63,388 nucleotides of DNA, from positions 1 to 63,388 of the forward strand of contig SNRW01000002.1 of the NCBI GenBank assembly GCA_008636045.1, given 5' to 3'. The position numbers and the translations under genes are program-made. Within the stretch, counting starts at the first letter, position 1, and each line of letters opens with the position of its first letter. The notes beneath the pieces were generated by a model. The model made no database searches, was not told the origin of the DNA, and was given only the letters and a program-made list of their open reading frames with translations. This DNA is from Streblomastix strix. Taxonomy: Eukaryota. Positions 3,201 through 33,600 of this stretch are shown piece after piece.

Positions 3201-6200
3201 GTTAAATATGAAAATTATTTATTAATTATTATTAATTTTTATTTAAATTCAATTACTAAAATTTTAATGATTGTTTTAAATTAATTAATTCTGCATTTTC
3301 TATCGTTGAATTGTGAGACAATTCTTATTTAATAATTGAATCGTTTTATATTGGAATATTAGATGAATTCGGCTATTTAATGTTTTTCCAATCTAAAGTA
3401 AGAGCTGAGCTCAATCTCGATTTTGCCATCGAGTTTAAATTTTATTAAGAATTCAAAGACTGATTTTATTATTTCAATTAATTTTACTATAAAGTATTTA
3501 TTGTTTCTGTTTATGTAAAGAATGGATTTTAGTCCCTGGCACCCAAACAGAATGGGAAATTTAGAGCATCTTTTTGTGTTATTGAGAATGAATGTGTATT
3601 TGATTTAGTATGGGTTAAAGTAGTTGAAGAATCTTTTTGATTATTATTTAATGTATGAGGTGGTATTTCATTATCAACATTTCCTTCATTTCCATCAATT
3701 TCATTCCACCTATCAGGAGACTAGGAATGATTTTATTTTATTGAATGTAATAGTTATTAATTTCTGGGAGAAAATTTGGTGTTTTAAGATTAAAATTGAT
3801 CATTTTAATCATTAACACTCTCTTTACTTTATTCTTATTCTAATTCTTTCTTTTTAATTTCATTTTTCTCTTTATTTTAACTTTCTTCTTTATCCTTCTA
3901 TTTTATTCTATTCATAAATTTTATTTATTTATGAGGATTAATAAACGAAAGATTGAATGATTCCTAAGAAATGACTGGTTATTATATGGCTGAAGTTATT
4001 CCAATTGTCGCTAATGAAACTGGATTAAATTCTAAAGAATTAATAAATAATATAAAGAGAAATTGGTAAATAATATAAAGAGAAATTGGTAAATAAAAAC
4101 AAATATATGAATATAGAAAATATATATATTTTATACCATCACGCATATCTGATGTAGTTCTTTTCTTCACTCTTAATACATCTGAACTTATTTTTTACTG
4201 ATATTATTGTTGTATTTATTATTGGGATTTTAATTCTTGTATTTACTGTTATTGTAATTATTACTCAGGTGTGGAATATAGAGTAAATGCTACATGAGTA
4301 ATTCCCTCTTATTTTACTGGCTTTAATTGTGGCGAATGAGCAGATGATTATTATTGTTAATATTACTAAACATATTAATCAGAATTATTTCGTTTCTTTT
4401 TATCTTCCAAATTATCCCAAGGTGTGAAAGAGAAAAATTATGAGAAGAATTAATCTTTTAGTGAATGTTATTACTAAGTTTGATATTACTAACGAAGAGA
4501 ATTTAAGAAAGGAGGTTATGATGGAGGTTATACGAAGAGTGGTAATGATTGTTGTTGTCCATTCTTTTCTATCTCTTATTATTGTAATGTTATTTCAGTT
4601 TCACGATTATTGACTAATTATAAGGATTATTATTGCTATGATATAGATCGTTATTATTGTATAGAATTAGAAGAAGGTGAAAGTTAATTTGAAGTAACTG
4701 GTGACAGCTATATATTTGTTAATGATTAAATTGGTTGCTGTTGAGTTATTTATTATTATTTTGGTAAATTTGAGATATATTTAGGTTATCTGAACTTTGG
4801 TTAATTTAGTAATTATGGAGGAGAAGAAGGAGAAGGTGATAATGAAGATGAAACTTAATTTGATTATGAAGATTGAGAAAGTGGGTGATTTTTATCCACA
4901 TTCTGTAAAACTACACCAAGTTTCTTTTCATTTACATTAATGCTTTATTATAATGACTAATTCAAAGATACCAATTTCCGTCCTGGAGGAAGTGTTGAAG
5001 GAAGAGAAGGAGGCTGACTTTATGGAATTGATGGAGGAGGTTTTGGTTTTGCTTTATTGATATCTTTATCTTTATCTGAATCTTTCTCAATTTCTTTATC
5101 AATATCCTTTAATAATGAAGGTGAGCTCCTTCCATCTGAAGTTATACTCAATCATGAAAGTTGTTGAAATGGTTATTACTAATTTATTAATTCCTGTTTA
5201 TCTCCAATTGCCTGCTAATATTACATATTACTTTTAGGTTAATTAGGAGAAAGAAATTATTATTATTATGCTTAATTACGAGATAATGAAGCAAAAGACA
5301 TTGATTGATTCTAATAGTGAATAAAAATAAAAATTATTAAGAATAATATTTGTAAATAAATTCCATAATTATTACAAATCCAAATAAAATATATCAATTA
5401 TTAATTCAAATTTAATACCTCCAGCAATTTCTATTTTCTTTCATTGTCTTAAGTTTGTTTCTAATGTTATTTCTGAAGTAATTTTTTATCTTATTAATTT
5501 GTATATTCTAATATAATATCTAAAATTTAATTAAAATTTGAAGCTGACGTTTGAGATTCGTCCACTGAATATGCAAAAAATTAAAAATAATAATTAAAAA
5601 ATAATTAATTTACTATTCAATGTCAATAATATTTACTTTTTCATTTGTATAATTACAATTAATTCATTATTATTCTCATACAAATATTAATTTAAGTTGA
5701 AACAGATGAATGCGGAGGTAATGGAAAACAGCCAAATCTCTGCAATAACATAGAAAATAAGAAATATGCTCCGTGAATTGGTGAATCTGTCATTGAAATT
5801 TGTTGTGAAGCCTAAGAATTGGATGTTGAAGATGAAGTAGAAACAGTTGAAGGTGTTTATTACTGTTACTGCTAAGTATTGGTATTAGAACTAAATTAAG
5901 GCCCCAACAATTCAATTGTGTCTTAAATAAGATCAAAAACCTGAGAAATAAGTTTTGCACCTTGTTATGATTTTAATATGGTGGAAGGAGAAATCATAAA
6001 CCAATCAGATAATGTATAAAAACACTTAGATATTAACATTCCATATATCTGATGAATAATAAGTGATAAAAATATTAAATTAAAGTAAAAGAAATAATAT
6101 TTAAATTATGATTATTAAATAATTTCATACATCTATTATAGAGGCTGGTTCTTTCTCCTATAAATTTACATTAATCTAAGAATTTGAATTTAAAGATGAA

Positions 6201-9200
6201 GGTGAAGAAGATGAAAGTAATTTTGATTAAGATGATGGTGAAGATATATATTATACCAGAAATAATAATAGTTCTTGTGTAAATCGAATAAGTTCAAAAG
6301 TGGTATTTATTATGCAATCCTAAAAATTAAATAATTGAATTAATATAAATAATTTGAAATATTATAAAATAATTTAAAGCATCAAATCATCATATTTTTA
6401 TCATACCTTATTCTCTAATTCATCTTCATTATATTTCTTATTTTCCTTTAATAATTTATTATTACTAATTATCTTTGCTGAAGATGCAAGGGATGAAAGA
6501 CAATCAAGAATATCAATTATGTTCTCTGACTGTTCCAAAGACAAATAAATTTGTGAAGAAGAAGAAGATGATGATGATGAAGATGATGATGATGAAGAAG
6601 ATGATGATGATGAAGAAGATGATGATGAAGATGAAGAAGATGATGATGATGAAGATAGTTAAGAAGATTTTGGAATAAATTTTTTATTTTCAACTTTTTT
6701 CTAATTTAATTATTCACTTTCTTATTCCTGTTTAAATGGAAGGTGAAGCAACTAACAAAATTTCTAAATAATCATTTTTGTTATTTAATATTCATTTTTC
6801 ACTTCTTGAAAAGCTATTGTCACTAATTGCCATTGTATACGACGTGAAAGATTATTCAATATTGGTTTTATATGCAATGATTCTATTAGAGTATTTAATA
6901 CTTATTAACTCAACTATTTATATGTCTGTGGGCGAGAGGATGCACGATACAATTTAGCGATCTTATATTCATTACGAGTAAGATGATGATTAATGGAATA
7001 AGATAAAGAAGAAGCACTTGAAGAAGAGGATAATTTATTTTATTATGAAAATTTAGATTAAAACTTTGTTTAAGGAGAGTTTTATTGAATTTGTGATTTT
7101 TCAAATGTTTTCTTAGGAACAAATGAAGTTGATGTTGTTTTAACAGTAGATTACTAATTTTCGGTCTTTTCACCTTTCTCAATATTCTTTTATAATTCTT
7201 TCTTACCTTTGTCTTCTTCATCCAACATCATATGATATAATATCGGAGGTAATTTAATTAGATTTGGTTTTTCAGATTATTTTAATTGTTTTATTCTTGA
7301 TGGATCCGATGGATTTAATCTTTAAGGAATTGTAGATTTAAAGAACATATAAGGCTTAATAAAATATAATATAAAATACAATAAATAAAAATTATAAGAA
7401 AAAATTTAATATAAAAAAAAGTTCGTTTTCAATCTCTATATATTTTTATCATATAAAAACCTTTTCAGTTTACTTTAACTCTGGTATTTATTTGTCACCA
7501 TAATATTATCCTAATATGTATAATTATCCTAATATTATTGTACTATTATAACGAATTGAAACATTTGCATGTGGCTAAATAAATAAATTAATAAAAAAAT
7601 ATTGGTAAATTAAAATAAATAATAAACACTATAATCAAACTTAATATTTCCTATTTATATTTTATTATATATTATAAAATTATTAATATTATTAATCTTA
7701 CTCAAACTTTTAGAAGATTTCGTCTCAAAAATGGGAAAATAAGTCCAGCAACTGTTGATCCAAGTTCAAAATTGTTTGTTAATAATGGAAATAGAGATTA
7801 ATAAAGTTATTCTTGTATTTATTCATAAAATATTTATTTATTAATATCGTTGTTTTAAATTAAATTATTGGATTGTTCTATTTAACTATCTTTCTTATCT
7901 TCAACTTCAACTTTAATTTATTAATTTGCATCAAATTAAATTTCAGTTTATATAGCCCTATTTTTCTAATCAATATTAACAGATTGATCTTTTTCTAATT
8001 AAACTTTTTCTAATTAAGTGAATTTTTCTTTCCTATCATCTTCTCCGTAACTATCTTCTCCATCATCCTCCATTTATCTTCCATATTCTTTTTCATCTTC
8101 AGCATTCATTATACTCAATGCAGCAGCTAAAGTACTAATAAAAGCTCCTCTATAAGCAGAATTGAATTTCTATACTCCCAATGAAGTGAATATTTCAAAG
8201 AAACATCCAGTTGCTTCTGCTCTGCCAATATAAAAATCCTTTTTATCTTCAATGATAGCTTGAATAAGCCACGATCCTGCAAAGTCTAAGATAATGTTTG
8301 CATTGACTGGAGGAGGAAATATAACAATATTTTTCCATTATTCATTTGTTTATATTGATATATCTATTTTTAAAAACATTTTACAAACTTATATCAGTGT
8401 TTGAATACAAGAGCGGAATGTATCAGACATTTTGGAAAGTGTGAATGATTATTAATTATTATTTTAATTAAACCCAGAATCTATAATTGCAAAAGTGTCA
8501 TTTTAATCTATTTATTCAATTTCTCTTTTCACTTCTCGTTTGGATACTCCTTTTATAGCTAAATTTTCATCATTATCTTTAATAATAACGTCATCATTAG
8601 AGTTTTTATTTCTAGAATCTATCTTTAATTGTTCTTTCTCTATCTCTTTTTATTCTTCTATTTAATTTATCTTATTATTTATCATATTTGGATTTCCTAA
8701 GATGCGAAGGAATTTGGCAAAGAGAAATGAAGCTCTTTCAATTGTCATGGTGATAGACTTTAATGGTTAATCTTTACTATTAATAAATAATAGGATGTAT
8801 ATTATTCACAATAGTAAACAAATAATGTTTGATATTATTATTGTTGGTAATTAAATCTATTAAATAAAAAAACCTTCTGTTCAATTGTATTAATGCAAAT
8901 GGAGATCCAAATGGAGATCCATACATTAAATTCAGAAGAAAAGCAACAAGCATTTCCTAATATTAAATATATTAAAGAAAAACATATCATTAATAATTAT
9001 TCAAATATTTCACATCTATGAACAAACTAAAGTTGATCGCCAATGAGTGATCACAATATTATGCTGAGTCCATTGATGAGCAATAAGCATAAAAACATCC
9101 CAAATATCAATGTCTTCAATTTCACTACAAATAAACATGTTGAATAATGTCTAAATATAACCATTAATAAATATATATATATTTAAAGAAAGAAGAAAAT

Positions 9201-9990
9201 GAATAAATATCTACAAACTTGGATATATCTTTCTCCCAAAATTTCCAATAAACTCTCCGCTGATTTACAATTAAATAAGTAATCACCCACCCCAAGAAAA
9301 GTTTTAAATATATTACCCCATGTCTTATTCTCAACTTCTGAGTGGAATTTGTATACAAAATTATTCATTATTTCCAATATACGCATACAGAGATCCGTTT
9401 GTTTAACAATTGAAGTGGAGTCAGAAGATTATCAAGTTTCAAATAATAGCGAGAAGTGATGGATGATACTCTTGAAAAAATATTTATAAATAAATGTATA
9501 TAAAATATTGAAAAAAATAAAGATCAAACCACAAAAAACTCCTATTTGTTATCTTCAAACACTGCATTTCTGGGTAAATCAAAAATCCATTGTTGATATA
9601 TATTTGTGGCCCCATTAATGAGCTTTTCCGATGAAACTGGTAATGAAAAAGCAGTCCCTATTAGCTCCATGTTAAGGCGGAATTAGTTTACATTCCGAAG
9701 TTCATTAAGTGCGTCTTTATGCCCATCAAAGAATATAATTGGCACAGAAATAAGATTTTCTTTGTACGTTAATGGCATCCCACTTAAAATGTTTTAATTT
9801 TCTTTCACATCTTAAAGTCCTAGTTCTGCAATGTGAGAGAGAAACATTTATCTTTTAATAATAAAAAATATTAAATAAGTAAAATGATACTAAAAAATTA
9901 AAACTTAAATTTATGTAGCAAGCGAAATCATGAAAATAAAATAAAAATGTAAAACTTATCATTGCTGAATGTGTTTTTTTAATATAACAT
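280..9990 (-). CDS. RalGAP-family (Rap/Ran-GAP, tuberin-like) GTPase-activating protein, multi-exon; 5' end approximate
   Basis: With TAR=Gln the C-terminal Rap-GAP domain reads RERLSHKIGIIYVGPGQ...EVVFHIP...KKHVGNDWVRIVWTEH...FGPLQD...LVRQTAIRA, with stop TGA at 280-282. The N-terminal half has RalGAP motifs MELIGTAFSLP, IYQQWI, TDLCMRIL, KTWGNIF, FLRILGNP, ILDFAGSWL, GRAEATG and GKFGDYAW. In-frame TGA at 9432-9434 and 5152-5154. Confidence 0.85.
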
Positions 9991-10607: not shown

Positions 10608-13600
10608 ATGGAGCTAGAAACGCCATAATACTAAGATTGTTTGCCCCGTTATTAACCATCATTCTCACATAAATTTGTAATTTTTATACTCTACATCATT
10701 CCAGTCGAAATAGTGAAGAAATTGTTTGGTGGAGCGATGGGTAAGACATTCTTAGTGAGGCTAAAAGCAACAGGAGTATTGTATGTGATGAAGAGAGTTG
10801 ATTACCTGGATGAGAATGATAAAAGGATGGCTGACGAAGAGGTCGAACAAACACGACAACTTTCTTCTCGTTATACAGTTTGCTCATTTTATTTTACATC
10901 ATCAAACATATGAACATAAAAACTTTATCTCTACTCTAGGTACATTTGGTTTGTTCATTTGTAGATCGCTGTGACTTGTATTAAATTACTGAGTACTGCT
11001 CGCATGGTGACCTTCGAAAATAGATTGCTGAACTCCAGAAACTTCCTGAAGAGGAACATCTGAACGTTTAAATTCTTTATTTATTTGTATCAATTTAATA
11101 TATATATTAAATAGCGCGTATATTAGTTGTTTGCATAGATAATCCTTGCATTAGACCATCTTCATTCTCATGAGGTTGTGCACCGGTTTGTGGATAATTT
11201 TAATTTATTTTGATAATTTAATACAATATTATTTCAGGGACATCAAACCAGAGAATATCTTTGTAATGGAAGATGGATCTGTAAGACTTGGTATATTTAT
11301 GATTTGGTTCAATATCTATATTTTTATATCTATCATTTTATTCTTCAGGTGATTTTGGACTCGCAAAGGATATGACTGAGAAAGATTATGCTACGATCGC
11401 TGGAACTAAGTTTAAGCAAAATTTTCATTTATTTTTGATAGTTACTCGTATTAATTAATTTCTGTACTTTGAACAGGATGTATATGGCAGCAGAAGTGTG
11501 GATGGTTAAGAGGTATGTAATGATAATTATTTTTATAAATTGATTCATAATATCATTTATTTAATCTTTTTAATTGTACTTAGAATGGACTACTGTTCAG
11601 ATATATATGCCACTGGAGTTGTAATATATGAATTATTAACTGGATCTCACCCATTTGCAGCAGATTCAGAATAAGAAATGATTGAAAAAATAAGAAAAGG
11701 TGATGTATAACAGATTCCATAATATGTACCACCTGTTCTAAAAAAGCTATTATTAAATATGCTTAGTCCAGTGTGATATTATTCAATATAAATATTTAAA
11801 TTTATCTATCTATTTATTTTTTTATTATTTGTTTAATAATCGAAATAGGATTACATCAAACGACCTTCAACAAAAGACATTATGAATTTTGAGGTTATAA
11901 AATCAAATATTCAATAGTTTCAAGAGAGATTAATCTAATAAGATACTTAGAGAGAGATAGATTAATAAAGTACAGTTTTATCATCAGTAAAGAAAATTAC
12001 GTTGTTAGAATTAAGAGAAATTTAAAAAGATATTTAATTATAATAAGAAAATATAATAATAACAAAAGATCAGATCAATTTTCGAACTTAAGTACTGAAA
12101 GCTGCTCGTTGTATTCATTCATAATGTTAAGAAGAAGCTAACGAAGAGATGTAAAACATTGAATTGGAATTAATTAACTTTGCTGCAAATTTGTAACATG
12201 TCTCATTAAGAGATCATGAAGATATTGAATCTTTATTTTCGAGTGGATTCATGATAGAGATGCTTGATTTAATTCGTCGAACTGATGTAGATTTGATTTC
12301 TAGTAATACATTAAGAACTGTATCTTATATTTCTGAAAATGGAACAGCAGAACAATCACATAAATTGTTCATGATGAACACAATATAGATTCTTACTCCA
12401 AAACTGAAAAGCAAGAATTTTTACATTCAGAGATGTATTTTATGGTCATTCTTTTAAATAGTTAGGAAAGGATGGATATAATCAAAATTGAATATTCAAC
12501 AGAATTAGAATATATCTTCTATTGATTAATAATCACTTAATTGTGGATTTTCATCATAATTAAATTAATAATAACCTCAAATTTTCTAATAATAATTAAA
12601 TTCTTCAAATTAATCACTCTTTCCTAATATATCATTTAAATTGTAGAATCATTTCCTTATTCAACATCCATATTTAATTACATTTGAAAAGTAAGGAGTT
12701 TATCGGAAAATTATTGAAGATATTCTGGCAAATAAAGAAGTTGAATTAAAGACAAAATTAATTTATGTTGGTCTTCTTGACATTATTTTTGTTCATGGAG
12801 TTATCCTTCCTGTAGATATTCGATCACAAATAATAAAAGATTTTTGTACTCAAGCAAAATCAAATAATGATTATATTAAAATTAATGCATTAAAATTAAT
12901 TGTGCATTTATCTGTAAATAAAGGTTTGAAAATAATATTGTTTTATTTTTTTAATTTGCAATTTTCATTTCATAAAGCATTAAAAACATATATGATATAT
13001 TACACTTTTGTTTTATTTTAAAATAACTTATTTAATATTTATATTTTAATTAATAGAGAATCATGAAGCAATTATAAATGAGGAATTTCTGGAATCAATA
13101 CTTGAATATTTTAGGTTTCTATATAGTAATAATTCTTCTAATTTTTTAATTTTTTTACCAATTTTTTTTGTTTAATTATATTCATTTATTGTAATTTATT
13201 AAACTTTTATTACAGAAAAATTGCAAATGGATAGAAAGTTATTCCAGAACAAATTAAATATTCAATAACTATCTTACAATAGATATTTATTTTTGGTTCA
13301 AATATAACAAAGCGATTAATAAGAAAAGAAATTTCAACAGAAATACTTAATAAACTTAAGGAGAATAATTATTATGAATAGGAAGCCACAATACTTGAAA
13401 GTATTTTTGCTGATCCAGAAACATTGGATATTTTAATGAAGGTTTTAAGATTTATTTCATATAAGATTGAAGAAAAGAGAATTGAAATGATTGAAGATGG
13501 ATTATTATCTTTATTAAAATAAGAGATGGAAAAAATGAAATTGGAAGAAGAAGGAAAAATTATCAAAATTAGTCAGTTAATATCTTAATTGAGTAATTTT

Positions 13601-15990: not shown

Positions 15991-16021
15991 TAAATAAATA
16001 TATAATTTATTAAATAAAATT

Positions 16022-19000
16022 TCATGAATCCCTCTCAGACTTTTTCAAGTCGTTAATGATAGATTAATCGCCATTAGAACTAAATATTGCTATAAGTGGT
16101 TATCCAGGTTGTATTCTATCACGGTTTTTCTTGGAAATTGATGGAAATTTATCTAAAGAGTTTGGGAAGTGTGAATTCTGGTGAAGAACAAACACTTTAA
16201 ATTCGCTGATGTAATCTTTGATTGGGTCTTTCCTTCTCAAATTATTATTCTTTTATTAATTTTCTAATTTGTCGGATCCTTGTCTTAATCTTTGTTCTTC
16301 AGGTCTGTTAGTATAATATGAATTATTCTTTAAGTTTTCTCTAGCAAGAGAGGCAATGATATGATTATTATCGCGAAGCATTCGCCCTTCAAGCTTATGT
16401 TTCATTGATTTTTTTGCTTCAAAAGCCTTTTTCCCAATTTTCTTAGCTTATTCTTTCTTCTCTTTCACAAACTACATTGCTTCATTTTTTTCTTATTTTG
16501 ATATCTTTGAGTTCTTCTAAATAAGCTTCTCTTATACAGCTTTCTCAAAACTTCCTTCTCCATAACCAGTCAATCCAGCTGTTTAATTTGGAGTAGAGTA
16601 ATTATCAATCCATAAACCTTATTAATAATTCGTGTTATATCCACTGAATCCAAATTGTATTCTTTAAAGATTGTTAAATGTTCCGATTCCAGGAATTGCA
16701 GGAGTTATTATTGCGATTTAAGGAGTATTTAAACCCATCAAGTTAAATCCGCTGCTAAAGTTAGGTGTTAAAATTGATCCACCAAATTAATTGTAATTAG
16801 GATTTAGCGCAATCTGAAAGTTTGAATAGTTTGCAACACCTTATAAATTCATTCCACTATAAATATTATTATTCAAATTTATTCCATGATCGTTCATCTA
16901 AATATCAGACATTCCTGGCCCTGTATATTCTTCATTTCCACTCCATTATTAAGCCATTATCTCAAGTAACTCTAACTAAGCAAATGAATATCCGTTAGCC
17001 ACAACAATTACGCACACATCACACTGTATCATAGGATCGTATCTCTCAGTGCGTGGAGGGAGTATATCTGCTTCATCTGTTGGAATTTAGGGTGTTGATG
17101 AAAGATATGACGAATCTGTTTGTGTAATAACAGAGGAAGAATCATATTAATTAAATTAAGACGAATATTGAGATGAAATGTCTTTGTTTGAGTTCAAACG
17201 GATTTTATCTGCTTCTGTTTGACGTTTTCTTCGACGCTTTGTTATAAGATTCATTTTCCCTTTGAGTGTTTTTCTGACAAGATCAATAGTTTCCACAAGA
17301 AATGCATTAACTTTTAATAACTTTTCATCAACAATTCCTTATAGAGGCCATATAGCTAGTTTTCTCATTGAATCTCGTAGATGAAGGATATTATAATAAA
17401 TATGCTCACTCCAATGTGGGCAGATAGGTGAAAGCAATGCTATGATTACATATGCATATCTTCTTAAAAGACCCATTTCAGGATTTGACTTATTAATAAC
17501 TTCTCTAAAGTTTTACTCAATATTTTATTATTATTACTAAAGTTCAAGAATTTCCTTGACTGATTCTTCATCTTATTCATTGGTTTTTAAATCTTCAATT
17601 TATGATTCAATATTATGCATCTATTATTCATACAAATGTCTTAAGTGAGTTCGAGTAATCTCAAGATTTTTTTCATAGTTATTTCTTGCTTATCGAAGTT
17701 CATTGAATATAAGTTAAACAATCTCACCATATTCTCCATTCAAATATAATTTATCTGCCCTTAATATTGCTAAATTAATCTATGAACGGAATATGGCAGC
17801 ATAAAGGAGCATAACTGTGACATTTGAGCTTGAAATAGAAAAAGGTGAAGAACCATAAGAAGAAGGACTACTTATTGGATTAATTTCATCGTATGAACTT
17901 TAGATTGAACCTAAATTTTCTGGAGTTGATGAATTTGGTATATAATCATTCATTATGCCTTATTTTTCAATGCCAAGAAAAGACCCACTTTTATCATCTT
18001 CGTCATCATCTACTAGATATGACTCATATCCAACAACAAAACAATAATCACATTCACAATCATTATCTGTTTCTTGTTAATCTTCTTAGTTATTCCTATT
18101 AACAGATTAATTTGGACTTTGAATTTAATTATCTCCTTTTAATTCATTTGATTATGGAGTTGCATTTGAATACATGGAAGCGGAAAATGCTGAAATAACA
18201 GATTTTCCTTCAAATTAACGATCAATTTAGGAATAATATTGTGGTAGTTTCTCTAAGAATAAATCTGGATCATAAGTTCCTTTTCTTTTCTATTTCTTTC
18301 TCTTTTCTTCTATTTTAATTTCAATGGCTTTCTCAAATTTCCAGTGTTCTTCTTCTTCAATTTCTTTTTGTCTCTCAGTTTTTTATTCTTCTTTTCTTTT
18401 CTTTCTCTTCTCTTTATTTTCTTCTTTTTGTTTCTTTATATCTTCAGCATTTGCAATAATTTCTTTATTTTCATCTCCAGTATATTAATAGTGCGAAAAG
18501 GATGATGATGAATAATCTTCAGACTATTCTGAGAAATAGAAAGATAGATCTTATTCTTTATTATCATCTTCTGAATCAGTTATCCGATCTTCAAAATACT
18601 AATCATTATTTAATTCTTATTCATCTTCATCTTCATCTTTTTAATTTTATTATTAATTTTTAATTATATCTTCTTTATTGTCTTTAATTTCATCAGCATT
18701 ATCTTATTATGACATAGATTAATCTTCATCTAATTAAGATGAATATTCATCAGAATATTCATCATCACTTTCATCATCATCTTTCTAGTTTTTAACTTTT
18801 CCAATATTCAGATTCTCTTATGATTTGATGGTATGAATTGAGATTCTATCATTTCTATCAAATTCATCATCTACAACTGAGATTATATTCATTACTTGGT
18901 TTTATGTTACTATCTAAATTGGCGATCCTTGAATATTCAAATTATTTGACCTATAGTTATCATCATCTTCATTTATAGATTTTTGTTTCTTTTGTTTTTT

Positions 19001-22000
19001 CTTATTCTTCTTCTTTTCTTTATACAACATTTATTTATCCCTCTTTCTTTTTAATTCCTATTCTTAATCATATTCTTCAATTTAGGAAGATTGTTCACTA
19101 AATATGTCAGTATTTCCATCTCTTGAAACTATTTTAACTTCCTAGCCTTTATCAAAATAGTCAACGTTTTCTAATATTTTATTAATAAAAATATTTTCCA
19201 TCCATTAAAGTTCTCTATTTAAAACACCAATAATATCTGTTGCATATGAATCTATATAAGATATATTATTTGTTTAGAATCTCCACCGAGAACAAACAAA
19301 CGCAATTCTTAAAGCATCACTTGGATGTTTCATAAGTAATACATGAAATTTGGAGTCAATCTCTTTTAGAAGTGGACTGTTGGAATATTCTTAATTTTGC
19401 TTCTTTTACTTTTCTTATTCTTCATCTATGATCATTTCACCCAAAACTCGTAATCCCTTTGGCTGTTAATCTGCTTTAACAAAGAATTGAGCATGATGAA
19501 ACACATGAGACAACATTTGTTAGCTCAGTTAATGCCTACTAATAACTCGGATGTCTGATGGATACCAATACAAGAATTCTGATCTCAATTCTTCAAGTAC
19601 AAAATGAGGAAGCGGTTCAGGTTGTGATTTGACGTTCAATTCATATTCCTCACTGTTCTAACTAATACTATTAATTGATGTTGATTTAGTGAATTTATCA
19701 TTTAAACTTCCACTTAGATTTTGTGTTATACTGATTCCTAATTTTTCTCTCTCTTTCATTCTCTATAAACGAAGTTCTCTATTTTGTTCAAGTTGCTTCT
19801 TTGCTTCTAAATGATCATCACTACAACAAAATATATAATCCCAAACATCACTTGTCATTTATTATGCTTATATTTTATAAATGGTATTATTTGTATCCTT
19901 GGATTATATTCCATTGTTTAGAATATGTGCAATAGGGAATAGTAACATACTCATGGCTTGATATAATTATGGATCAATTGTATATTCAGAATAATCATCA
20001 TTTGAAAGGAATAATTCTTCTGGATCAAGTCCCAATGCTTTTTCTTCTTATTCATTTCCATCATCGGCTAAATTTAATTTACATCCAAGTCCATTATTAT
20101 GAGTAAGAACTTTATCTTTTGCATTTGCTAAAAAGTTGAAGAGTTATAATCGTGTTTCATCTTACTATACTATATTTCCTCCAGTAACTTGCTATTATGC
20201 TTGTGGCTATTAAACATTCCCTTATTATTACTCATTTGTCTAATTTGCATTTGTATTTGTTTCATTTTGACTATTTAATGGAATTGATCCACCAACTGCT
20301 GCTGAAATTTATTTTCCAAATTAAGCAAGTAACATAATTTAACTGCTTGGTTTTATGTCTTATATATTCATCTGAAGTAAGCAAACTGTTGATTTATCTC
20401 TCCAATCTTACTAACTATATTAAAGAGTCCATTATCTTGTTAATCTGACCACACACTCATCTCCATATACTGACTATGTTGGTTTAGAAGGTTCAAAATA
20501 AATAAATCCCAATTGATTCCCATATTAAATTCTGTCATTCTTTGTCTATTCAGGAATTTATTTCCCTCCTCCATAATTGATAATATTCTATTTGAGAACA
20601 TCCCTCGCTTGTGTCAAAGCCATTCCTTTACAGGGACCATCAGCAATTGTTCCTAAAGTAAATGCCTATTGGAGTAATGCTGCTTTTGCTCTTTGTATTG
20701 CAGCAGCTTCAAGTGGATCTTCATGATGAATTGGAAGCCTAAGGAGTTTCGTTTTCCCACTTCGACGCTCTTTAAAGAATTCATTATTATTAGACTCTTT
20801 TATTGGATTGAATATTTTAAACTTTTAACTAAGAGATTACTACTCTTTTTCTTCTTTCTTTTAATTATATTTCTAATTATTCTTCTTTTCTTTTAATTTT
20901 TTATTTTCTTTTTCGCTTCTTTCAATATCTTATACCCTTTCTCTTTCTTTTTATTTCAATTTCTCATCTTATTTTACTTTTATTCTCTTATTCTTCTAAT
21001 CTTTTTCTTCTTTTTCTTTTCTGATCAACTCTTTATATGCAGCTAATGTTGTCTCTGCTGTCATAAACCCCTTTTCATTATATCCAGGAACATTGACTGG
21101 ACATTTCATATTAAATGAAGAATTCCATTCAAAATCTGTTGAATAATCTTCATGACTGATTTATTCATTTACTAACTCTTCATATCCTTCATGTCCTTGA
21201 TCACCATTCCCACCAAATAATTATATATTCTCTTCCATTTAGCTCAAATCCATTTCTAAAACTTCTCCATCTTAATGAACAAGCGCTCGCATCCAAACTC
21301 TAAGACCTATTGTATGAGTAACTTTTGTATATGATATCTTCTCTTTTGGTTATTTACTTTATTTAATCATTTCTTTATATACAAAAAGTTATTCAGGATT
21401 GTACGACACACAGGCTTCAACAAATCCAGTTCCTCTTTCAGTAACAACAAAATCACCAGGAAGCACAAAATATTGCATTCCACGATCTTCATAATATGAG
21501 TAATTATATTCACCCAATTCTTCAGCTGATATGCACAACACTGTATCATCATTATCATCTTCTGTTTAACTTTAATCGTCTTCTCCATCAGATGTGCTTC
21601 CATCTGAAATGAGAGATGATCTTTAGCTACTTTAAATTGAATCTAAACTTCCTGATGGATATGAAGGAGAATCTGTAAATAGATTTGATTGAAATTACTC
21701 TTTTTATTATAATTACATAATTGGAGTTATTTGTTATGATGAAGGCGAAGTTGTAGATTAATCTTCTTCATCTTATTATTTTTATTGCTAGTAAATTGCT
21801 TGTTATGAACTATGAGATCCTTATGAGTGATGACTAAGTGAATTAGAATGCGGAATAGATAAGGATGAAGCTTTCATATAAGAACAAGATAAAGTTACTC
21901 TTCCGTGAATGGCTGCTGATGCTGATGATGATGTTATGTCTGAAATTGAGGAAAAGTTCGATATTTCATTTGAAATATTATTGATCTGTTGATTTTCTTG

Positions 22001-23770
22001 ATAATTGTTTGTATCAATTAAATTTAAAGCAGATATTTCAGTTTATGAAGGAAGTTAAGTTGAAGGTGTGGATATTGAAATGAAATCTTTTTGTTAAGAT
22101 GTATTTTTTTCTCCTTTTACGCTTTTAACTATTTATTCTTATTCAATATTATTTCTATTGATCTTAGCTTCCCTTGCCTAATTTCTAAGATCCAGTTTAG
22201 TTTCAGAAATCTTTTCTTATAGTCTCAATTTGATCTCAGCCAACATCTTATCTCTATTTTCCTTCTTCAATGCTTTAATCTTCCTATCAGTATCTCTCTC
22301 TCATTCTTCTTCGCTCTGATCATTAATTATCTTTTATTATACAACTTCAGATATTTATCCAACATTCATCATTCTTCCTTTTCTACCTACTTTGAGGGGA
22401 TTAGCAAGAATACGGAGTCCAATGAGATCATTACTATGGATATCGAATACATGCAAATCTTCAAGTGTTAATCCCAAGCTTTCTAAATGAATGCATCTTT
22501 GATTATATAAATTATGAGCAGCACGATGTGTGCATATAATAATTTGAGTAAGCAACTTCATATGAGGACATTATTCTAAGTGATTCATTATTAATTAATC
22601 AGTGTTATATGATTCATTATTATCATTATTAATTGAATGGAAAACAGATGTCTGTGATTGTTCAGGTGAAGATGATGAGTAAAAAGTTGATATTGGAGAT
22701 TAATCATTTGGATATGGCATAAGATAACCTCCCAATTTAATATTTGGTTTAACCCACAAACCCATTTAATTTAATAACGATTCTGGTCTTAGAGTTGATG
22801 ATACACAATATATTGGAAAGTGAGATATAGATTAATAATTTCGAGGTTTCATGTACTTCAAGAAGAAATCATGGTGACTTAAATTTATAAGATTGGGATC
22901 TTTTTTGTTATCATCTGATGCTATAGTATCTGCAGGAATAATAAATTTATCAAAAGAAGGCATATCAATGAGTTTATGCTTAATTAATAGAAACTCCATT
23001 GGTACTGTATCAATTCCTATCTTCCTATCATGGCTTAAACACATTTATTTCATCTTCTCAGACCAAATTACTGGCTCAATCTTATTCCTCAAACGCTTAT
23101 AATCTCTTAAAGATTCCATCTACCAATCAATAAATGACTGAAAGAATTAATTACTCTGATGTAACATCATAGATCTTCTCCAATCTACTCTTAATCCCAA
23201 TTTATTTGCATCTTTCTATTTAATTAAGATTTAAAGTTATTATACATAATAATAATAAATTAATAAATAATAATCATACCTTTCCAACTTCTTTAAAAAA
23301 ATCTAGCCAACGGTTTGTGTCTTTAAATTAATATAAATTTTCGTCATTTATATCAAAATCATTTAGAAACTTTGAGATATAATTCTGACTTTTACCTGGA
23401 AAATCAATTTCTTCCTTCAATTGTTTAGATAAGGCCTAATTATAATATGAAACAAAAAACAAATATTTTCATTAAATGTAAAAGAAAAGCAAACATCTAT
23501 TAAAGCACTTGAAAATGGGAAATGCAATGAATATAGAACATTCTGTCCCTTTAGAGCATAATAATTCGCAATAACATCAGCAGTAACAGCTTCGTATGCA
23601 TCATTAACTGTAAGTGCAAATCCAGATGGTCCTCCAATAGTTACAAGAAGTTTAGTTTTATTTCTATCAATATTTGTCTCAAAATTATTATCTTTCATCC
23701 ATTTTTCTGAAGATTGCTTCTAAATCTCACGAAGAATTTTTATCTCATCTTCATTAATTGCAATATTCAT
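16022..23770 (-). CDS. Leucyl-tRNA synthetase (eukaryotic/archaeal type) paralogue with degenerate HIGH, KMSKS and editing motifs and large low-complexity insertions (~2500 aa)
   Basis: Colinear LeuRS motifs: LGLRVDWRRS, SFIDWQ, CLSHDRKIG, STLRPES, ICTHRAAHNL, VLPGDFVVTERGTGFV, GDECVVRLTRQW, QMTSDVWDYIF, LRSEFLYWYPSDIRV, SDALRIA, LLSPICPHWSEHI, IQPGQP. Two introns near the 5' end, then one ~7.2 kb exon with a single in-frame TGA at 22301-22303. Stop TGA at 16022-16024. Confidence 0.9.
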
Positions 23771-23941: not shown

Positions 23942-24500
23942 TAAGTTCAAGCATGGTTTCAATAAAGATGTTCAATAAAAATTGGAAATAAAAGGAAAAA
24001 TAATTTGATGTTCTTCGCGAGGAGATTCCAATTCTCTAAAGTGTTAATATTATGTGTGTTAACATGAAAATATGGAATAATATTTAAAAGTATATATTAT
24101 ATTTTGTTGTATTTATTAGAGCGTGCACCGCATGCGTTTTAGTGAATAAATAATCAGCATAGTTTTGTGGTGTTGAAGAGTTAAAATATCATTTAATATA
24201 TTCATAAATGCAAAGATATATATTTTATAAATGGATTAAATAATTATATAGCAAATAAAAAATTGAGTATAAAGCGGTGTAAACATGAATAATTTATTTC
24301 TTTAATCAGAGTCTGTGGATCATTATTCTGATCGTTGATGTTGTAATTTAAACATATAAATGTAATTCATAAAATAAATTATGTATTTTCAAACTTGAAA
24401 TTTCTTGTGACTTCTAAAACGTGAGCAAATTATTTTTTATTAAAAACACAGATTTTACGACAGTACAAAGATTATAATCTAAAATTGCATTACAATAATA
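23942..24500. repeat. Dispersed intergenic repeat, copy A (~560 bp)
   Basis: Shares long near-identical blocks (gagcgtgcaccgcatgcgttttagtgaataaa; ctttaatcagagtctgtggatcattat; gtattttcaaacttgaaatttcttgtg) with 27564-27902 and 45697-46250, all in the same orientation. Confidence 0.9.
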
Positions 24501-24585
24501 ATTAAATGCTGAAAATTACTAAATGTTAACAATAATAATAAATTGACGTTATTATTATTATTTTATCTATAAAAGGCTATTAAAC

Positions 24586-27405
24586 TCATTCAGTGTTTGG
24601 ATTTGAAGTATCATTGAATTCATAAATGATACTTCCACTTTTTTTATTTTTTGGTGGAGGTGGAATGGATGGAAATTAAATAGATGGGCGAGATTGAGTG
24701 TTATTCTAGGTTATATGTTTAGGTGATGGATATGGAGGAACTTTGGGAATATTTTAAGTTGCATGTACTGGTTACAAAGGAGATTAAGGAAATGGCAATC
24801 TGGGAATTCCATTTAGTACTGAATTAGATGAATGGGATTATTATTCTTAAATGTTAGATTGTACTGTCTATGAAATCATTGATTGGTGGAGTCTTGGAAG
24901 TTTAGGTGGTAATTGTGTCAATTTAGGAAATTGAGGTAATAATTAAGGTAATTAATTATTAATATCATTTAATATTCCCTTATTATTATTCTCATTTTAA
25001 TTTCTTTATTTTAATTATTAATGAGATACATCAAATTATTTCTATTTTTATTACATATTTTATTATTGGGATCTTTCTTTTTCAATTTTCTCTTATTATT
25101 TCACTTATAACTCTTTCTCTTATTATTTCATTTATAACTCTTTATCTTATTATTCCCTTATTAATTTCTCCTATTCTTTTTCTTTCTCTATTCTTTCACT
25201 TTCCTTCTACTTTTCCCTCAACAATTCTTCTTATTCTTATTTTGATCTATTTTCTCTTAATTAAATCTAAATTCTTCTTTTTTATCTTTCTTCTTCAATT
25301 TATTTTTATTTCTTAGCTTATTCTGCTTCTTTCAGCTTAATCTATTAAATATCTTCTTCAAAATTATTAAATTTTGGTACTTCAACAGTTCCTTCATCTG
25401 GATTAATACCATCTTAGAATTGTTGATTGAATAGTAATCTTCTATAATATGGGAATATATTAAGTCCTGTGGGATTGCTAGTATTAGTTTGTGTTGTGGG
25501 GTCCTGCGTATTTTTATTCGTTTTTACTTCTTCTTTGAAAGAATCTTCTATAAAATCATATGGTGATATTTTTAACTATTATGCTGTTGATTCAAATGCT
25601 GTATTTGCAATAATCTTCAATTATTCTCCAATATGTATTTGATTATTTTCATGCAATGACTCAGCAATTTATAATAAAACAAGTTTGCTTAATTATTGTG
25701 TTTCAACAAAAGCCAAAAGCCAATCTAATAAAGCAATACCTTGAATAAAATTATCAGAAAATGGAGAGAAAGGAGAATTTATTATTGATTATGGGCTAAT
25801 ACTATTGAGAGCATTTATGAGATTGGTTGGGATGCTTATTTTCTATTCAGATTCATTTGAATTGTTCGCTAATTGTGCTTATTATTCAATATTTTGACAT
25901 TATTATCTCAATTGGTTAAGCGCAAACTCAATTCGAAGAAGATCTAATTTATTTTCATTTTATTCATTATCTACTTATTAAATTGATTATTCTTATTAAA
26001 TTGATTATTCTTATTAAATTGATTATTCTTATTAAATTGATTATTCTTATTAAATTGATTATTCTTATTAAATTGATTATTCTTATTAAATTGGTTATTT
26101 TTCTTAAACTAATTATTCTTATTATATTAATGGAATTTTCTTCTTATTTTCTGCTTTGTTTTACTCCTGTTTTTATTCTTTTTCAATTATTTTATTCTTC
26201 TTCTTCTTCTTCTTCTCAATCATTGATTATTTATCATTCTTTTCTTTATTATTATTAATAATTTATTTGGTATCTATAATCCCCAATAATTCTTTATTAA
26301 TTGCTTCGAATTCATTTTCATCTCCAGCTGATGCCAATGTTATCTTTGATATTTATTACTTGGGTTTATTCTTTGTTTTTTTCAACATGTTTTCAATTGA
26401 TTCATTTAATAATTAATCTGATTAATCATCATCATCTTCATTGCTTATATCTATAACATTCTCATTATTTATTAAATTCATATTTTTTCTATTTAATTTC
26501 TTTGATTATCTAGTAATATATTCATTTTTAGAATGATCCTTGTTTTTATTACCATCTTCTTATTAATTTTCATTTATTTCATCTTTTTCCATTTATTTAT
26601 TCAACTCATTGTCATCATTTCTATTTTAACCATCAAATTCTTCAGTATTACTTTATTATTCATTCTAAGCATCATATTCTGATTCTGAATCTTTTATTAT
26701 TCTTCTTCTTTTCCTTCCTTTATTCTCAACACCATCCAAAGTTTTATTTTCTTATTCAATATTTTCTTAGTCAATATTTTCATCTCTTTTTCTTTTCACT
26801 TTCCTTGCTTTATTACTTTTTCTTCTATTTAATGATTTTCTTGATTTATTCTTATTTAATATTTCAATATTATTATCATCGCTTTCAACATCATCATCAC
26901 TTTCAATAACAATAAACATTTTATTCTAATTTTATCTATTTTCTTTTTTATCTCCCTAAGAATTCATGTCATTTTCCTTATCCATAATCATTTCTTTATT
27001 ATCTTATTATTATTGTGAATTTCTATTCTTTTAAATCTTTTAATTTTTTTGAGTCGTATAAAGTGAAGATTACTTTATAATTGATAATGTAGGAATTATA
27101 ATATTGTTGCTTTATGAAGATTATTATTGAAAATCTTTGTTTTGTTCATTTTCCCATTTCAATTTGATATTCTCTATTGTTTCATTTATATTTTCAGAAA
27201 TATTATCACTTACTCTTTCACCTCTCAGTACATTTGATACAAAATAAATCTTATTCTCTTTTAATTTAATTACTTTTAATTTGATCTTTTTTTGCTATTC
27301 TTCTAATTCCTGATCATTTGTGAGATCTATTGCAATACCCAATTATTTTCGTAAATGTTAATACTTATATCGGGATTTGTCTTCTTCCATCACAATCTAC
27401 TTCAT
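24586..27405 (-). CDS. Hypothetical single-exon protein (~940 aa); charged/low-complexity, Pro-rich C terminus
   Basis: One frame from ATG (27403-27405; MKQIVMEEDKSRYKY...) to TGA (24586-24588) with TAR=Gln. No domain recognised. Confidence 0.75.
25974..26099. repeat. 18-bp coding tandem repeat, ~7 copies (peptide QSIQQE on the - strand)
   Basis: Unit cttattaaattgattatt repeated in tandem; last copy diverged. Confidence 0.9.
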
Positions 27406-27563
27406 AAATTGGTGAAAACAGAAAAAAAATGAAAAATAATTGTATTCAAGCTAATAAGTTTTTATTTTTACTTAAATTAGCATGCTTGTCAAAAATAAAT
27501 CTGATAAATGATGTTAGTTTTCTGCATATTGCACTATTCTTGTATTATAATTAATAAAAATAA

Positions 27564-27902
27564 TTTGTTGTATTTATTAGAGCGTGTATCGCAAGTGTTT
27601 TAGTGAATAAATAATCAGCATAGTTTTGTGGTGTTGAAGAGTTAAAATATCATTTAATATATTCATAAATGCAAAGATATATATTTTATAAATGGATTAA
27701 ATTAGTATGTTGCTCATAAAAAATTGAGTATAAAGCGGTGTAAACATGAATAATTTATTTCTTTAATCAGAGTCTGTGGATCATTATTCTGATCGTTGAT
27801 GTTGTAATTTAAACATATAAATGTAATTCATAAAATAAATTATGTATTTTCAAACTTGAAATTTCTTGTGGCTTCTAAAACGTGAGCAAATTATTTTTTA
27901 TT
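27564..27902. repeat. Dispersed intergenic repeat, copy B (partial, ~340 bp)
   Basis: Nearly identical to 24103-24440. Confidence 0.9.
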
Positions 27903-28267
27903 TAAAGCGAAATAATTAAGTATTCAGACTTCAATTGAATTTTATTTATAATTAATTTAATAAAATTGATAATCAAGTTTTAAATTCTACTATAAATCTT
28001 AGTATTAGTTTCAGTGATTAGGCACGGGTCATAATTATTTATTTTATTTGAGAAAGCTATAACTGTATCTAAACAAATTTCTTGCCAAAAAATATAACTG
28101 TTTGCATTAATTTAATTATTTTTATCCATTAAAATAAAAAAATTCACATTTTAACTCAATTTCGGCTCCTAGAATAGCTTACAAAAAAATTTCAATAAAA
28201 ACCTAATTTTAGTTAGAAATAGATTATTAAACAACTTAAATTATTTGCCCTGTTTTTAATCAGTTTG

Positions 28268-30169
28268 ATGAGTAACAAACCATCAACATACAACGTTGAA
28301 GATTCAATTAACGGGCTGGGACTTGACATTTTATTGGAAGTTGTACGCGAAATGATGAATGTACGTGATATATAGAATGTATGAAATATTTTTATCTATT
28401 TTATTACTTATTTGTTCATTCAAATATTTTCTGCAGTTTGTCGTAATCTCCAAGAGTATTCTCAAAATTATAACTCATCCTCGTTTCTCTTGGTATGAGG
28501 ATAATACTTAAACGTTTCTATATTAAATATTTTATTATTATTTGACTAGGGCTATTGAGTAAGGTATTTTTAAAGTCTTAAATTGGTCTAATTAATAAAT
28601 TAATTTTTTGTGTTACAGTTACAAAAAGTCACATGGGCACTAAAGCATTGATTTTTGAACGGATGACATCTTTTGCTGAGATATTAAGACCTTCTAACTT
28701 AGCTAATCCAGAAATATAAGTGAATGCTGCATTATTTGAGATATGCCCATAATAAGAAGATTAAGACCCTGAAAATTTGGTTATTCGTTCGATGTGTGTT
28801 TTATAGAAGGAAATTTAAATTGATTAGTAGAATAACTTTACAGCATCATGTGTTATATGTATTGATGGTCATGGCCATCTTAAAGTGTACTTATTCAATT
28901 TATTTGTTAACAAGTTTATATTTATTATTAAATATTTAGAAACATCTATTTAATTTCGAAAATCATTTGCACTCTTCTATTGTAAATTCGTGCAAAGAGT
29001 GGTTTTCGAAGCTTGAATTACCAACAAACCAATAGAATGAAGATGTAATATTCCTTCGTGTTAAGAGTCAAGGTTAAATGTGCATGGCTTTGGCCCTTAG
29101 TGGAGAATTGTGGACTTTGGGAATAGGAGAATTTGGTTAAGCAAATAATGATCAAATGTTTAAGGTTCATCCGTCATTTGTATATAACAATGGACAGGTA
29201 GAATCATCTTTAGGACCATCTAGAATAAGACAATTCTGCTTTGATGATTTAAGAATTGTAGTCACTCTTGAAATTGGAGCAGTATTTATGCTTGGTAGTG
29301 TTGCTGATTTCTAAAGTTATGATGTAACATTGTCAGTCGATGGTTTTATTGAAATTACTGATAGATCCAAATTTAAACCAAGATTTATAACAGAAATTCG
29401 AGGGATTCTTCCAGATCAATCGGGTCCATATGGAATATTTGGAAAGCATAAACCCATTACATACTTCCGTAGGATGCACGCATTCCTTACTGATATTGGA
29501 GTAGTCATTGCAAGGTGCTATGCAATTGTAGAAGAAAAGAATTAATTCTTCTACACTCCAATTGATCCAAACTTTTTTAAATCAGATGTACAACATCCTT
29601 CAACCGTTACTTTTGAAGATGAAGATTCTTCAAATTAATTGGATTAATTATCCATTACTAATTAACATAAGAGTTCTCGTATGGAGACTATAGTTTCAAT
29701 GGACTCTCATGAACTTGATGCCTTTATCACTTCATAGGGTGTAGTTCATATTACAGATGGAGCTCGATCACTTCCCGAGTTCTATTTTTCGCTTCTTCAT
29801 CCATTACACAAGTTTCAGCTACCAATTCTATCGACTGCATTTAATAGACTCTTTCTAACTGAGTAAACTCACACCACAGTATTGTGCAGAGATGGGAGAT
29901 TCATTTCAATACTCTTTATTGGGAGTAAAAAGAATGATCCAAAAAGTAAGAAGAAAAAGAAAGGATCAGCACTTATATTTGATGGAAGTCATCTTGCTAA
30001 AGATCCTGTTGTTGAAGGTCCATTTACATACACAGCTTTGGATGTGAGCGAAAATCTATCAAGCTTGGTTTCAAACGCTAAGGTATAGAGTGTATTTCGT
30101 TCCAGCAAAGCCCTGTTTGCAAAGAACATTGGTCAGTGTGGAGTACCTTACACCGTTATTTATGAGTGA
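28268..30169 (+). CDS. Protein with F-box-like N-terminal motif and divergent RCC1/BLIP-II-like beta-propeller repeats, multi-exon
   Basis: N terminus LGLDILLEVVREMMNVRDIQN/FVVISKSILKIITHPRF. Repeats MCMALALSGELWTLGIGEFGQ, IVVTLEIGAVFMLG, HAFLTDIGVV, AFITSQGVV and HTTVLCRDGRF. Stop TGA at 30167-30169. Confidence 0.65.
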
Positions 30170-30647
30170 ATAATCATAAAATTAGGATTATTTTATATTC
30201 ACTTCTCTATATATAAACTAGCTATAAATTCATTAAATAAAATAAATGTTTTATGACTATCTAATAAGAAGTGTTTTTCCTTTGAAACATCGAACCTAAA
30301 TTAATTTGTGAAAATATGGAATAAGAACATAATAGATAGGACTATAATATGTTTATTTGTTAAATAAAAATAAAATAATATTTATTTATTTATTCACAAA
30401 ATTAACAATTTTTTATCTTGCAATCAATTTTTTTACTAAATCGATGAAATTCACATTTTTTTATATATTAATCGAGCAAGATTTTAAAGAAATTATTCTA
30501 AACATATAGCATACATTATATGAAACCAAATAAAATATAATTAATAGAACACTAAAAATCTTCTACACCAAAAAAATACATTCATAAATTCTTAAATTTT
30601 TGATTAAAAATTCATAGATTTCTTTACTTTTATAAAATAAACTAGAA

Positions 30648-33600
30648 ATGACGCAGCAGAAAATATTTTCACAAATAAGAGATAATAGCATTTTATCACC
30701 AAATGTACCACTTCAATCTCAAAACCATGCAAGCCAATCACAAGGCTTCTTTTAAAGATGGCGCTTTAGTAATTAAAACAGATTGGATCCATTGAATAAG
30801 CAACTTTCAAATCACTAATCATATGAATCTCATGATTCCTCATCGAAATAAACACCCAGAAACTCTTAATCTTCAGGACAACAACAATAATAATAGATTG
30901 TAGCTGCAGCATAAGCATTACAAAACTAAATAGCACCATAAAGAAAAAGACTTGGAATGGGTTTATTACGTCAGATACAACCCAAAGCTTTTGGCATTAT
31001 CACACCAAGAATAATTTCATCTTTGAATAACAAATCAACAACCAATGCACCACAACTTGATTTTTCTTAAATGGAATAGTCAACAGAATAAAATAAACCT
31101 GAATAATAATAACCTTCGAAACAACCTAAAAATTAATAAGTTCCTTATATAAATCAATACGTTTGATATCCTCCAATTAAACCAACTCCCCTTCCAAAGC
31201 CAAAATCTCTTTAACTACTTGCTCAATCTTCTAATGCATAATCTATTACTCCATAATCAGCTCCTTCTATCAACAAAAATAATTCTATTTAAAGATTTTA
31301 AAACCTCAGAGATAGGAAAATGTCTAATGCTGGAAATAAATAGCTTCCTTCTTCATCATCTTCAGCAGGATTATTACCCATTTAAATGCAAGGATAACAA
31401 TAATTGAATACATAATTAAACACTAAAACGTCATTGATATAGAATAATTTAATGAATAATATTGGGTAAGTATAATAATAGGTATAGATTTAGTAGTAAT
31501 TATCTAAACCACTCACTTTATCTCAGAATTCTATGCCTCCACCTTCAAAAACAATTTATGATAGAAATGAAGGTTAGAATAATATTTAATAAACAAATTA
31601 AATAACTACATCCAAATAGAACCATCAATATAATATTGAAACAAAGGGTGAAAATAAAACAATATTAGAACAGCTTGAATCTTCACGAATCCATTCTGAA
31701 AATTCAATATATTCATCAATGCCTAATGTCACTTCAAAATAACTTTAATATCAAACACTCACTTCAATTCCTGCAAGAATCCCTGTTCAATAATAATTAT
31801 CATCTCCTCCCTTATCTCAACATTCACTCACTCATTCATCATAGAATTCACCTCCATAATAGAGATCTCCATTTATTACTCATTCTCCATTCTCTTTATC
31901 TCCTTTTACTCCCCAAACTCCAAATATGAAGCATCCTCCCATTTCACCACTGCAGAGTCCTAGAACAATGCAGTAGTAATCACTGCAGAGATAACTTCAA
32001 ACTTCGTTGGAAGAGAAATCAATGTTATTGCGTCGCATGTTTGAACTTGAGGATGCAGAAAGAATTTGAATGCGTGAAAGAGAAAAAGAGAAGAATAATG
32101 AAATTGAAAAGATATTATAACTTGAGAGAGAGATTGAAAAATATAAGAAAATGGAAAAATAAAAAGAATTGAAGGATGAGAAATAAAGAATGATTGGTAA
32201 CAATTAACTTAATGATGATGAGCCTGTTTATGAATAAAAAATATTGGATACTTTACCAAAAAAGTAGAAAAAAGTCAGAATTGTGGAATAAATATAAGAC
32301 ATTTAATAAATATAAAATAAGGATGATGTGAATTATGAAGAACTTCATGAAGATTCTATTCTTGAAAAAGTTAATTTATTTAATACTCCTCTTGAAATAA
32401 AAGAAGAAGAAAATTCATTTTTGTTTAATAGTCTCATTTTTGGAGATGAAGATGAAGAACATGACATCATTGATGAATAGAGAAATTATATATTCTATTT
32501 TAATGATATTGAGAATTCAGATGAATCAAATGATGAAAGTGAAGATTATGATGAAAAAGATTAATAAGATTAGGAAAACGAAATTGATTAAGAATCTGAA
32601 GATGATAAAATAGAAGAATACAATGATTTGATTATGAATTTTAAATTTAATACTAAATAAGAAACAAATACATTTACATAATCTGAATATCAATAAGAAA
32701 TTAAAAATACAAATTAATTATTCAATTCAAATGAAATCGATAATTATAACTCATATATTGATATAATAAAAGATTAAATATAAGAATAATCATCACACTA
32801 AACTGAATTTGATGAATTAAAAGAGAATTAATTGGAGAAAAAGAAAATGAGAGAAATTAAAAAGAAAGAAAGAGATTCTGTAAGAGAATAAATACATAAC
32901 AAAGCAATTGATAATAAAAACAATTCAATTGACGAAATCCAACAAAATGATAATAATAGTTAATTTAGAGAAATTAAAAATAGAAAATATTTGTGGGGTT
33001 GGAGAAATGGTGGAGAATTTGAGAATGATAATGTTAATTTATCTCATTAAAATGACCAATGAAGATCACTCAATGGAATTGTCACTCCTTTTTCTGATGT
33101 AGATAATCTTTGCATTTCACATGAAGAGCTGGAAATATAGAAAAGTGAATAAAGAAACAGTAGTTAATAATTTTAAGATTAAATTTATAAAGATATATTA
33201 TTATAAAATAATGAAAACAAATCAAATTTTTATGACTTCAACAATTTCAAAACACAGAATCTTAATAAAACATTTTTATCATCCAAATCATCAATTTTAT
33301 CTTCTCCTTTAACTCTTCCAAATTCGCATTCAATTCAAAATAAATAATTAATTTAATAATAATCTTTAACTTCATCTAATAATATATAGTCAAATTAATT
33401 TAACTTAATTATGAATAACTATTTATCAAAAATGATATAGGAATCTTAAGGATTTAATAACCTTCTTTATTCTATATTTAATATGTATTAATTCTAGAAT
33501 AATTTCATAATAGAAGACGAAATAATATGTGAATCGGAAGATGAAGAAATATTGATGAATACAATGATAAATAAATAGATAGTAAAAAATGAGAATAATT

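Follow-up and report, generated by a model that had tools for sequence, protein, structure and literature searches.

The window analysed here is a stretch of 63,388 nt (contig SNRW01000002.1) from Streblomastix strix, a metamonad protist of the termite gut, and its three longest host genes contain six in-frame TGA codons. UGA terminates genes in S. strix, and we tentatively propose that it may well also be read through at rare, tolerated internal sites; recent gene-breaking mutation is a close rival of this proposal. The evidence base comprises the window, four contig sets, and protein homologs. The coordinates, strands, and flanking peptides of the six codons, and of a further TGA at 51155 in a decayed mobile element, are all as an earlier note on this DNA had given them. 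That note had also described the interrupted host frames as free of frameshifts, and none was found here either.

Two of the codons lie in a multi-exon gene of the RalGAP/tuberin type on the minus strand (280..9847), which matches PF20412 (RALGAPB_N) at its 5′ end and PF02145 (Rap_GAP) at its 3′ end and finishes at a terminal TGA (280–282). Its conserved blocks are collinear with those of the Monocercomonoides exilis ortholog P0181, and its frame changes fall at positions interpreted as GT-AG introns. The TGA at 9432..9434 is codon 13 of exon 2 (9219–9470), and that at 5152..5154 is situated in a stretch that cannot be aligned to the M. exilis ortholog. Three more codons interrupt a gene on the plus strand (30648..39311; 2887 codons) that follows a single frame (30648–39308), has no Pfam match, and is transcribed over its 5′ 2 kb. 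These are the TGAs at 31164..31166, 32067..32069, and 33060..33062, the last of which is followed by an open frame of 2082 codons and is bridged by no listed contig.

The sixth codon (22301..22303) interrupts a long LeuRS-like gene on the minus strand (16022..23770), which keeps one frame throughout 16025–23230. The relatives of this gene are two Blattamonas proteins of 1760 and 2379 aa; a first search of the region had returned two self-fragments only, and the homologs found later do not align at 22301, the TGA being placed within an insertion that both of them lack. The LeuRS-like protein and Blattamonas P0031 and P0034 have long insertions and no recognisable HIGH motif at the expected N-terminal place. 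The only Pfam match in the LeuRS-like protein is to the anticodon-binding domain. These proteins may form a conserved family of inactive LeuRS paralogs in oxymonads.

In-frame TGA occurs at 6 of 11,615 host codons (0.00052), versus 881 of 23,210 off-frame triplets (0.038), so the frames are true coding frames in which interruptions are rare. Each of the six internal TGAs precedes the terminal stop of its own gene by 4.8 kb or more, and, of the nine host genes, just the three longest are affected (P = 0.06 under a spread by length only). A clustering toward 5′ ends (Fisher p = 0.02) is post hoc, uses approximate gene lengths, and serves as a lead only.

Codon usage and the residue at UGA

The reading of UAA and UAG as Gln, which the earlier note had put forward, agrees with the assignment of S. 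strix to NCBI table 6 (PMC13002328). In the window, frames of 1600–2100 codons stay open only if TAR encodes Gln, the annotated S. strix protein P0010 threads onto the DNA under this code, and TAA and TAG supply 1131 of 1477 Gln codons. The role of TGA as the codon that ends genes was likewise upheld: AT-rich non-coding DNA follows TGA at seven inferred gene ends, and the terminal TGA of the RalGAP gene agrees with the C-terminus of the M. exilis ortholog. The terminal TGA is followed by AA at four of the seven ends (280, 16022, 39309, and 39568; three of them AATTT) versus none of the six internal sites (p = 0.07), a lead only, which raises the possibility of an extended stop signal.

In terms of the residue inserted, one of the six host sites, 9432, can be aligned; the five others fall in unalignable or homolog-free sequence. 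Among six homologs the 9432 column holds Arg in four (Naegleria, human RalGAP-beta, GEM-RC1, and one further protein), Lys in one (Gefionella), and Ile in one. The match of this site to the Arg of LFVPR in human RalGAP-beta, put forward earlier, was confirmed via Naegleria, and a PDB search with RalGAP exon 2 gave no relevant match. A flanking-residue model, which is weak (area under the curve 0.6–0.7), scores the surroundings of 22301 and 32067 as Arg-like and those of the other four sites as not. The description of the TGA positions as Arg-like is therefore confirmed only in part, the surroundings of the sites not being Arg-like overall.

Trp is found in none of the six homologs at the 9432 column, and the Trp-Trp pairs of the RalGAP alignment are encoded by TGG in every case (one gene), bearing out the statement that conserved Trp residues use TGG. 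Selenocysteine is a most improbable residue at these sites: M. exilis and other Preaxostyla are reported to have its pathway (PMC10703272), but Cys is absent from the alignable column in six homologs and the sites lie in non-redox, low-complexity regions. Arg is the likeliest residue, although unproven, and the claim for it at internal UGA is weak; a reading specific to Arg is doubtful. Equally doubtful is its extension, namely that S. strix has no dedicated stop codon, with UAA and UAG as Gln and UGA as Arg inside genes and as stop at mRNA ends.

RNA evidence and rival explanations

Contig sets of four runs were compared with the window over 28400–39400, at the level of contigs rather than raw reads. 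None of the sets is recorded as RNA; we treat one of them, X2, as spliced RNA because its contigs skip the GT-AG intron 28885–28939. The X2 contig 31182–32318 has nine letters that differ from the window, all of them listed, and none is within codon 32067–32069. This contig (depth 10.7) bridges one of the three sites in the compared region, and the X2 haplotype differs from the window by about 0.8% across the 1.95 kb that it covers. TGA 32067 is thus common to two haplotypes and present in spliced RNA, which rules out an assembly error at this site and, for the dominant transcript, editing. The artefacts and editing raised earlier as alternatives are accordingly unlikely at 32067. A contig of run X3 also spans 32067, with eight differing letters of which four are listed, and was not used for the codon state; the word share of 0.99 in X1 is not site-specific and was unused, and stretches of the 30648 gene that lack RNA cover were likewise given no weight. 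Around TGA 31164, one X2 contig ends at 31162 and the next resumes at 31182; both breaks of this 19-base gap (31163–31181) are third codon positions and could mark an allele bubble. Searches for further S. strix DNA gave no match in JGI metagenome and GTDB contigs and none confirmed in IMG/VR, and the window contains no tRNA gene.

Removal of the TGAs from the mRNA, by U-to-C editing or by splicing, is very unlikely. The ten inferred introns measure 49–71 nt with a T share of 0.40–0.59, whereas the frame-keeping GT-AG skips tested around the TGAs each have a T share of at most 0.36. A 96-nt frame-keeping skip is available at 5152, but its T share is 0.31 and that of real introns is at least 0.40. 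GTTTGA at 31161 fits the donor motif of real introns, but the inside of the 39-nt candidate that begins there has RNA cover. For 9432, none of the candidates tested keeps the frame, and no intron-like splice that removes any of the six TGAs was found. Against both editing and splicing stands TGA 32067, unspliced and unedited in the RNA contig, with the proviso that this is one site and that contigs lose rare variants.

The idea that most of the TGAs arose as errors (C-to-T or G-to-A) in the amplified DNA behind the assembly, or are changes private to it, is somewhat less implausible than editing but still improbable. Nine transitions within 28400–32200 set the window apart from two other runs that agree with each other; the window has the A/T base in 8 of them, whereas among the changes private to other runs the figure is 3 of 8 (Fisher p = 0.05). 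Errors of this kind cause no frameshifts. However, TGA 32067 was found in the RNA of another sample, five of the eight A/T-ward changes are synonymous, consistent with real variation, and the rough rate (about 1% of G/C sites) explains approximately one TGA, not six.

What remains to be weighed is read-through against ordinary nonsense mutation. For read-through, an eRF1 already relaxed for UAA and UAG would, by analogy with a ciliate model (PMC10089648), stop poorly at a UGA far from the mRNA end, where a near-cognate or suppressor tRNA would insert a residue. Selection would keep internal UGA some 20-fold less frequent than a true synonym for Arg, and with low-background read-through the few internal TGAs would do little harm at positions where the residue is of minor importance. 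The 9432 column, which accepts Arg, Lys, and Ile, and the five other sites, which have no alignable homologs, support this notion. The Arg at 9432 in four of six homologs and the precedent of ciliates that read UAR as Gln also speak for it.

It is also quite possible that the TGAs are ordinary nonsense mutations. The genes concerned would then have died recently, or the alleles would be defunct and backed by intact copies elsewhere in a genome that is multi-copy or drifting. Given the substitution spectrum observed, a neutral divergence of about 1.1–1.2%, or 229–257 substitutions, is required for five TGAs in 6,915 codons. That modest divergence suffices to yield this many TGAs, so the conserved domains downstream, which the earlier note had held against pseudogenes, do not exclude them. 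Of neutral TGAs, about 40–48% are expected to come from Gln codons, 22% from Arg, and 13–19% from Trp; the Arg share rises under CpG decay, and this decay plus a drift toward AT would turn CGA and TGG into common sources of TGA. The scarcity of TGA, about 20-fold below that expected of a synonym, fits nonsense mutation as well. Nevertheless, a duplicated non-coding stretch has 2 frameshifting indels per 70 substitutions, so that neutral death of the genes should have left about seven frameshifts; none is observed (P(0) = 0.02–0.03; p about 0.02 for their absence). The only listed X2 indel in the 30648 gene is an in-frame 3-nt deletion (nine further indel rows lie outside the listing). Nonsense mutation would also require that the three longest genes are all dead, one of which is orthologous to a gene that is intact in M. 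exilis. The listed transitions show no CpG enrichment (4 of 23 versus a 14% background), and no second S. strix RalGAP was seen among 7 matches of 275 candidates (977–3112 aa), a weak point in that the window's own model is also missing there.

A dead-DNA control is offered by a decayed element on the plus strand (50900..52650, approximate ends), presumably a pPolB element by its motifs, with a match to the phrog_3322 endonuclease (E 0.0011). Besides the TGAs at 51140 and 51155, inspection by eye shows three or more frame changes in this pPolB/HNH element, a ratio of frame changes to TGAs of about 1:1. TGA 51155 does sit on the Arg of the HNH motif, as the earlier note had it, the residue being Arg in 32 of 34 viral copies and Lys in 2. 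But the element is frameshifted and dead, so the codon shows mutation and not decoding, and a conserved Arg turned into TGA in plainly dead DNA favors the nonsense explanation for the host genes too. A comparison of the viral loci with the window by tblastn gave no match at E 1e-4.

Haplotype differences were counted among the listed rows of the difference table (60 further rows are outside the counts). Upstream of 32067, 8 of 15 are synonymous versus 25% expected under neutrality (p = 0.017), a point in favor of read-through, and in a control gene the figure is 11 of 15.

Several observations weigh against read-through, against Arg as the residue, or against both. Downstream of 32067, synonymous changes make up 2 of the 9 differences listed (p = 0.70), a neutral-like pattern that fits nonsense mutation, with six of the nine stemming from one depth-5 contig. 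The indel rate behind the frameshift argument derives from two events in a window that was chosen for its TGA pattern, and the contig check covers 32067 alone of the six sites. Codon-junction CpG is depleted (0.49) and TpG (1.22) and CpA (1.28) are in excess, so mutation of CGA to TGA is favored without any change of code. The closest relative, M. exilis, has Ile at the 9432 column, and under the weak flanking-residue model the six contexts are closer to random residues (P = 0.59) than to Arg (P = 0.12); with five of six sites lacking an alignable residue and two of six scored as Arg-like, the earlier candidate reading of UGA as Arg is weak. TGA:CGA is 6:36 (0.17), whereas four other T/C first-position pairs range from 3.1 to 6.5 (p = 2e-17 for the difference of TGA:CGA); TAA:CAA is at 3.3. 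UGA is therefore not an ordinary Arg codon, and the analogy previously drawn between the passage of CAR to UAR and that of CGA to UGA fails. A full reassignment of UGA to Arg, with TGA used like a synonym of CGA, is not seen, and internal TGA is under negative selection. Nonetheless, read-through of rare internal UGA is a real and well-posed lead, for which RNA gives independent support at one site; neither the residue nor the read-through itself is proven.

Neighboring genes and mobile elements

A Nek-type kinase on the plus strand (10608..11776) is 100% identical to the annotated S. strix protein P0010. Ten other gene models predicted from the window had no counterpart in the protein collection. 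Among 20 aligned S. strix kinase models (P0010–P0030), nine finish at one same Val, which in the window is GTG-TGA (11771–11776), resembles an intron donor, and is followed by a kinase-like frame with the peptide DYIKRPS; the shared end is likely an annotation error. Internal deletions in six of the 20 models (P0015, P0016, P0019, P0028, P0029, and P0030) take in positions at which paralogs have Arg, one deletion being only about four residues long, and three models (P0013, P0014, and P0024) have deletions at other places. In the six, internal TGAs may have been skipped by the gene finder as if they were intronic.

An RRM gene (PF00076) is found upstream of a 1814-codon frame within 39568–45600 on the minus strand, and this frame contains a polyglutamine run of 111 TAA/CAA units (43429–43761) and a 35-unit triplet run (44771–44874). 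A dispersed non-coding repeat occurs in three copies that are 85–96% identical (23944–24501, 27560–27906, and 45699–46251), upstream of or between genes. The region 50300–63388 is a cluster of decayed mobile elements that includes the pPolB/HNH remnant, and its CpG value of 0.83 is less depleted than that of host DNA (0.50). The cluster also holds a DDE-type transposase (PF03184; 53153–54577), a look-alike frame without a Pfam match (59017–59787), and a DUF5906 primase-helicase remnant (60700–61900) with both TGAs and frame changes.

Comparison with known codes

In the literature searched, we found no description of internal UGA in an oxymonad; the search did not reach the 2003 code paper or bioRxiv supplements. 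The accessible text of PMC13002328, PMC10703272, and PMC5304391 does not mention it. Streblomastix is mentioned once in the accessible text of PMC10089648 and is absent from one of its supplementary files and from seven supplementary files of PMC8629427. If the read-through of internal UGA is correct, a metamonad has come by its own route to a code in which all three stops are usable as sense. Decoding as Arg would make this the first code of the type Q/Q/R (UAA, UAG, and UGA as Gln, Gln, and Arg) outside ciliates, at an early, low-frequency stage of the third reassignment; the code type is already known, and the lineage would be new. Gene models built with table 6 would then be split or truncated genome-wide: with a TGA every 1900 codons or so, errors would be expected in the models of many long S. 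strix genes, a point of relevance to claims of gene loss for the species. S. strix would also provide a second lineage in which to ask whether UAR as Gln predisposes UGA to capture by Arg, and a test of whether the low-frequency Q/Q/R calls in ciliates reflect decoding or mutation. If the codons are nonsense alleles instead, such a load on long genes is unusual in its own right.

Known codes with a dual UGA differ in the residue assigned. In Blastocrithidia, UGA is read as Trp. As is proposed here for S. strix, the position in the mRNA decides between stop and sense there and in Condylostoma and Parduczia, in which UAR is Gln and UGA is Trp or stop (PMC10089648, PMC5304391). Unlike UGA in Condylostoma and Parduczia, the internal UGA of S. 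strix is not readily taken as Trp, as conserved Trp is encoded by TGG and the alignable column has no Trp. The published table 6 account concerns the same organism, inferred its codes from tubulins only, and makes no mention of UGA or TGA in its accessible text (PMC13002328).

The closest likeness is to spirotrich ciliates, seven of which are reported to use a Q/Q/R nuclear code (Chen et al. 2023, PMC10089648), so the earlier statement that no nuclear code with UGA as Arg is known does not hold. In Uronychia, Sterkiella, Tetmemena, Stylonychia, Paraurostyla, and Uroleptopsis, TGA is bifunctional, and, as in S. strix, UAA and UAG encode Gln and a terminal TGA coexists with low-frequency internal TGA; homologs have Arg at the ciliate sites (PMC10089648), and in S. 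strix four of six have it at the one site that aligns. Since S. strix is a metamonad, Q/Q/R there would be of independent origin. The ciliate assignments draw on hundreds of sites (987 in U. setigera) with read support and a fixation criterion of internal TGA allele frequencies above 90% at high depth (PMC10089648), whereas S. strix offers six sites, of which one can be aligned.

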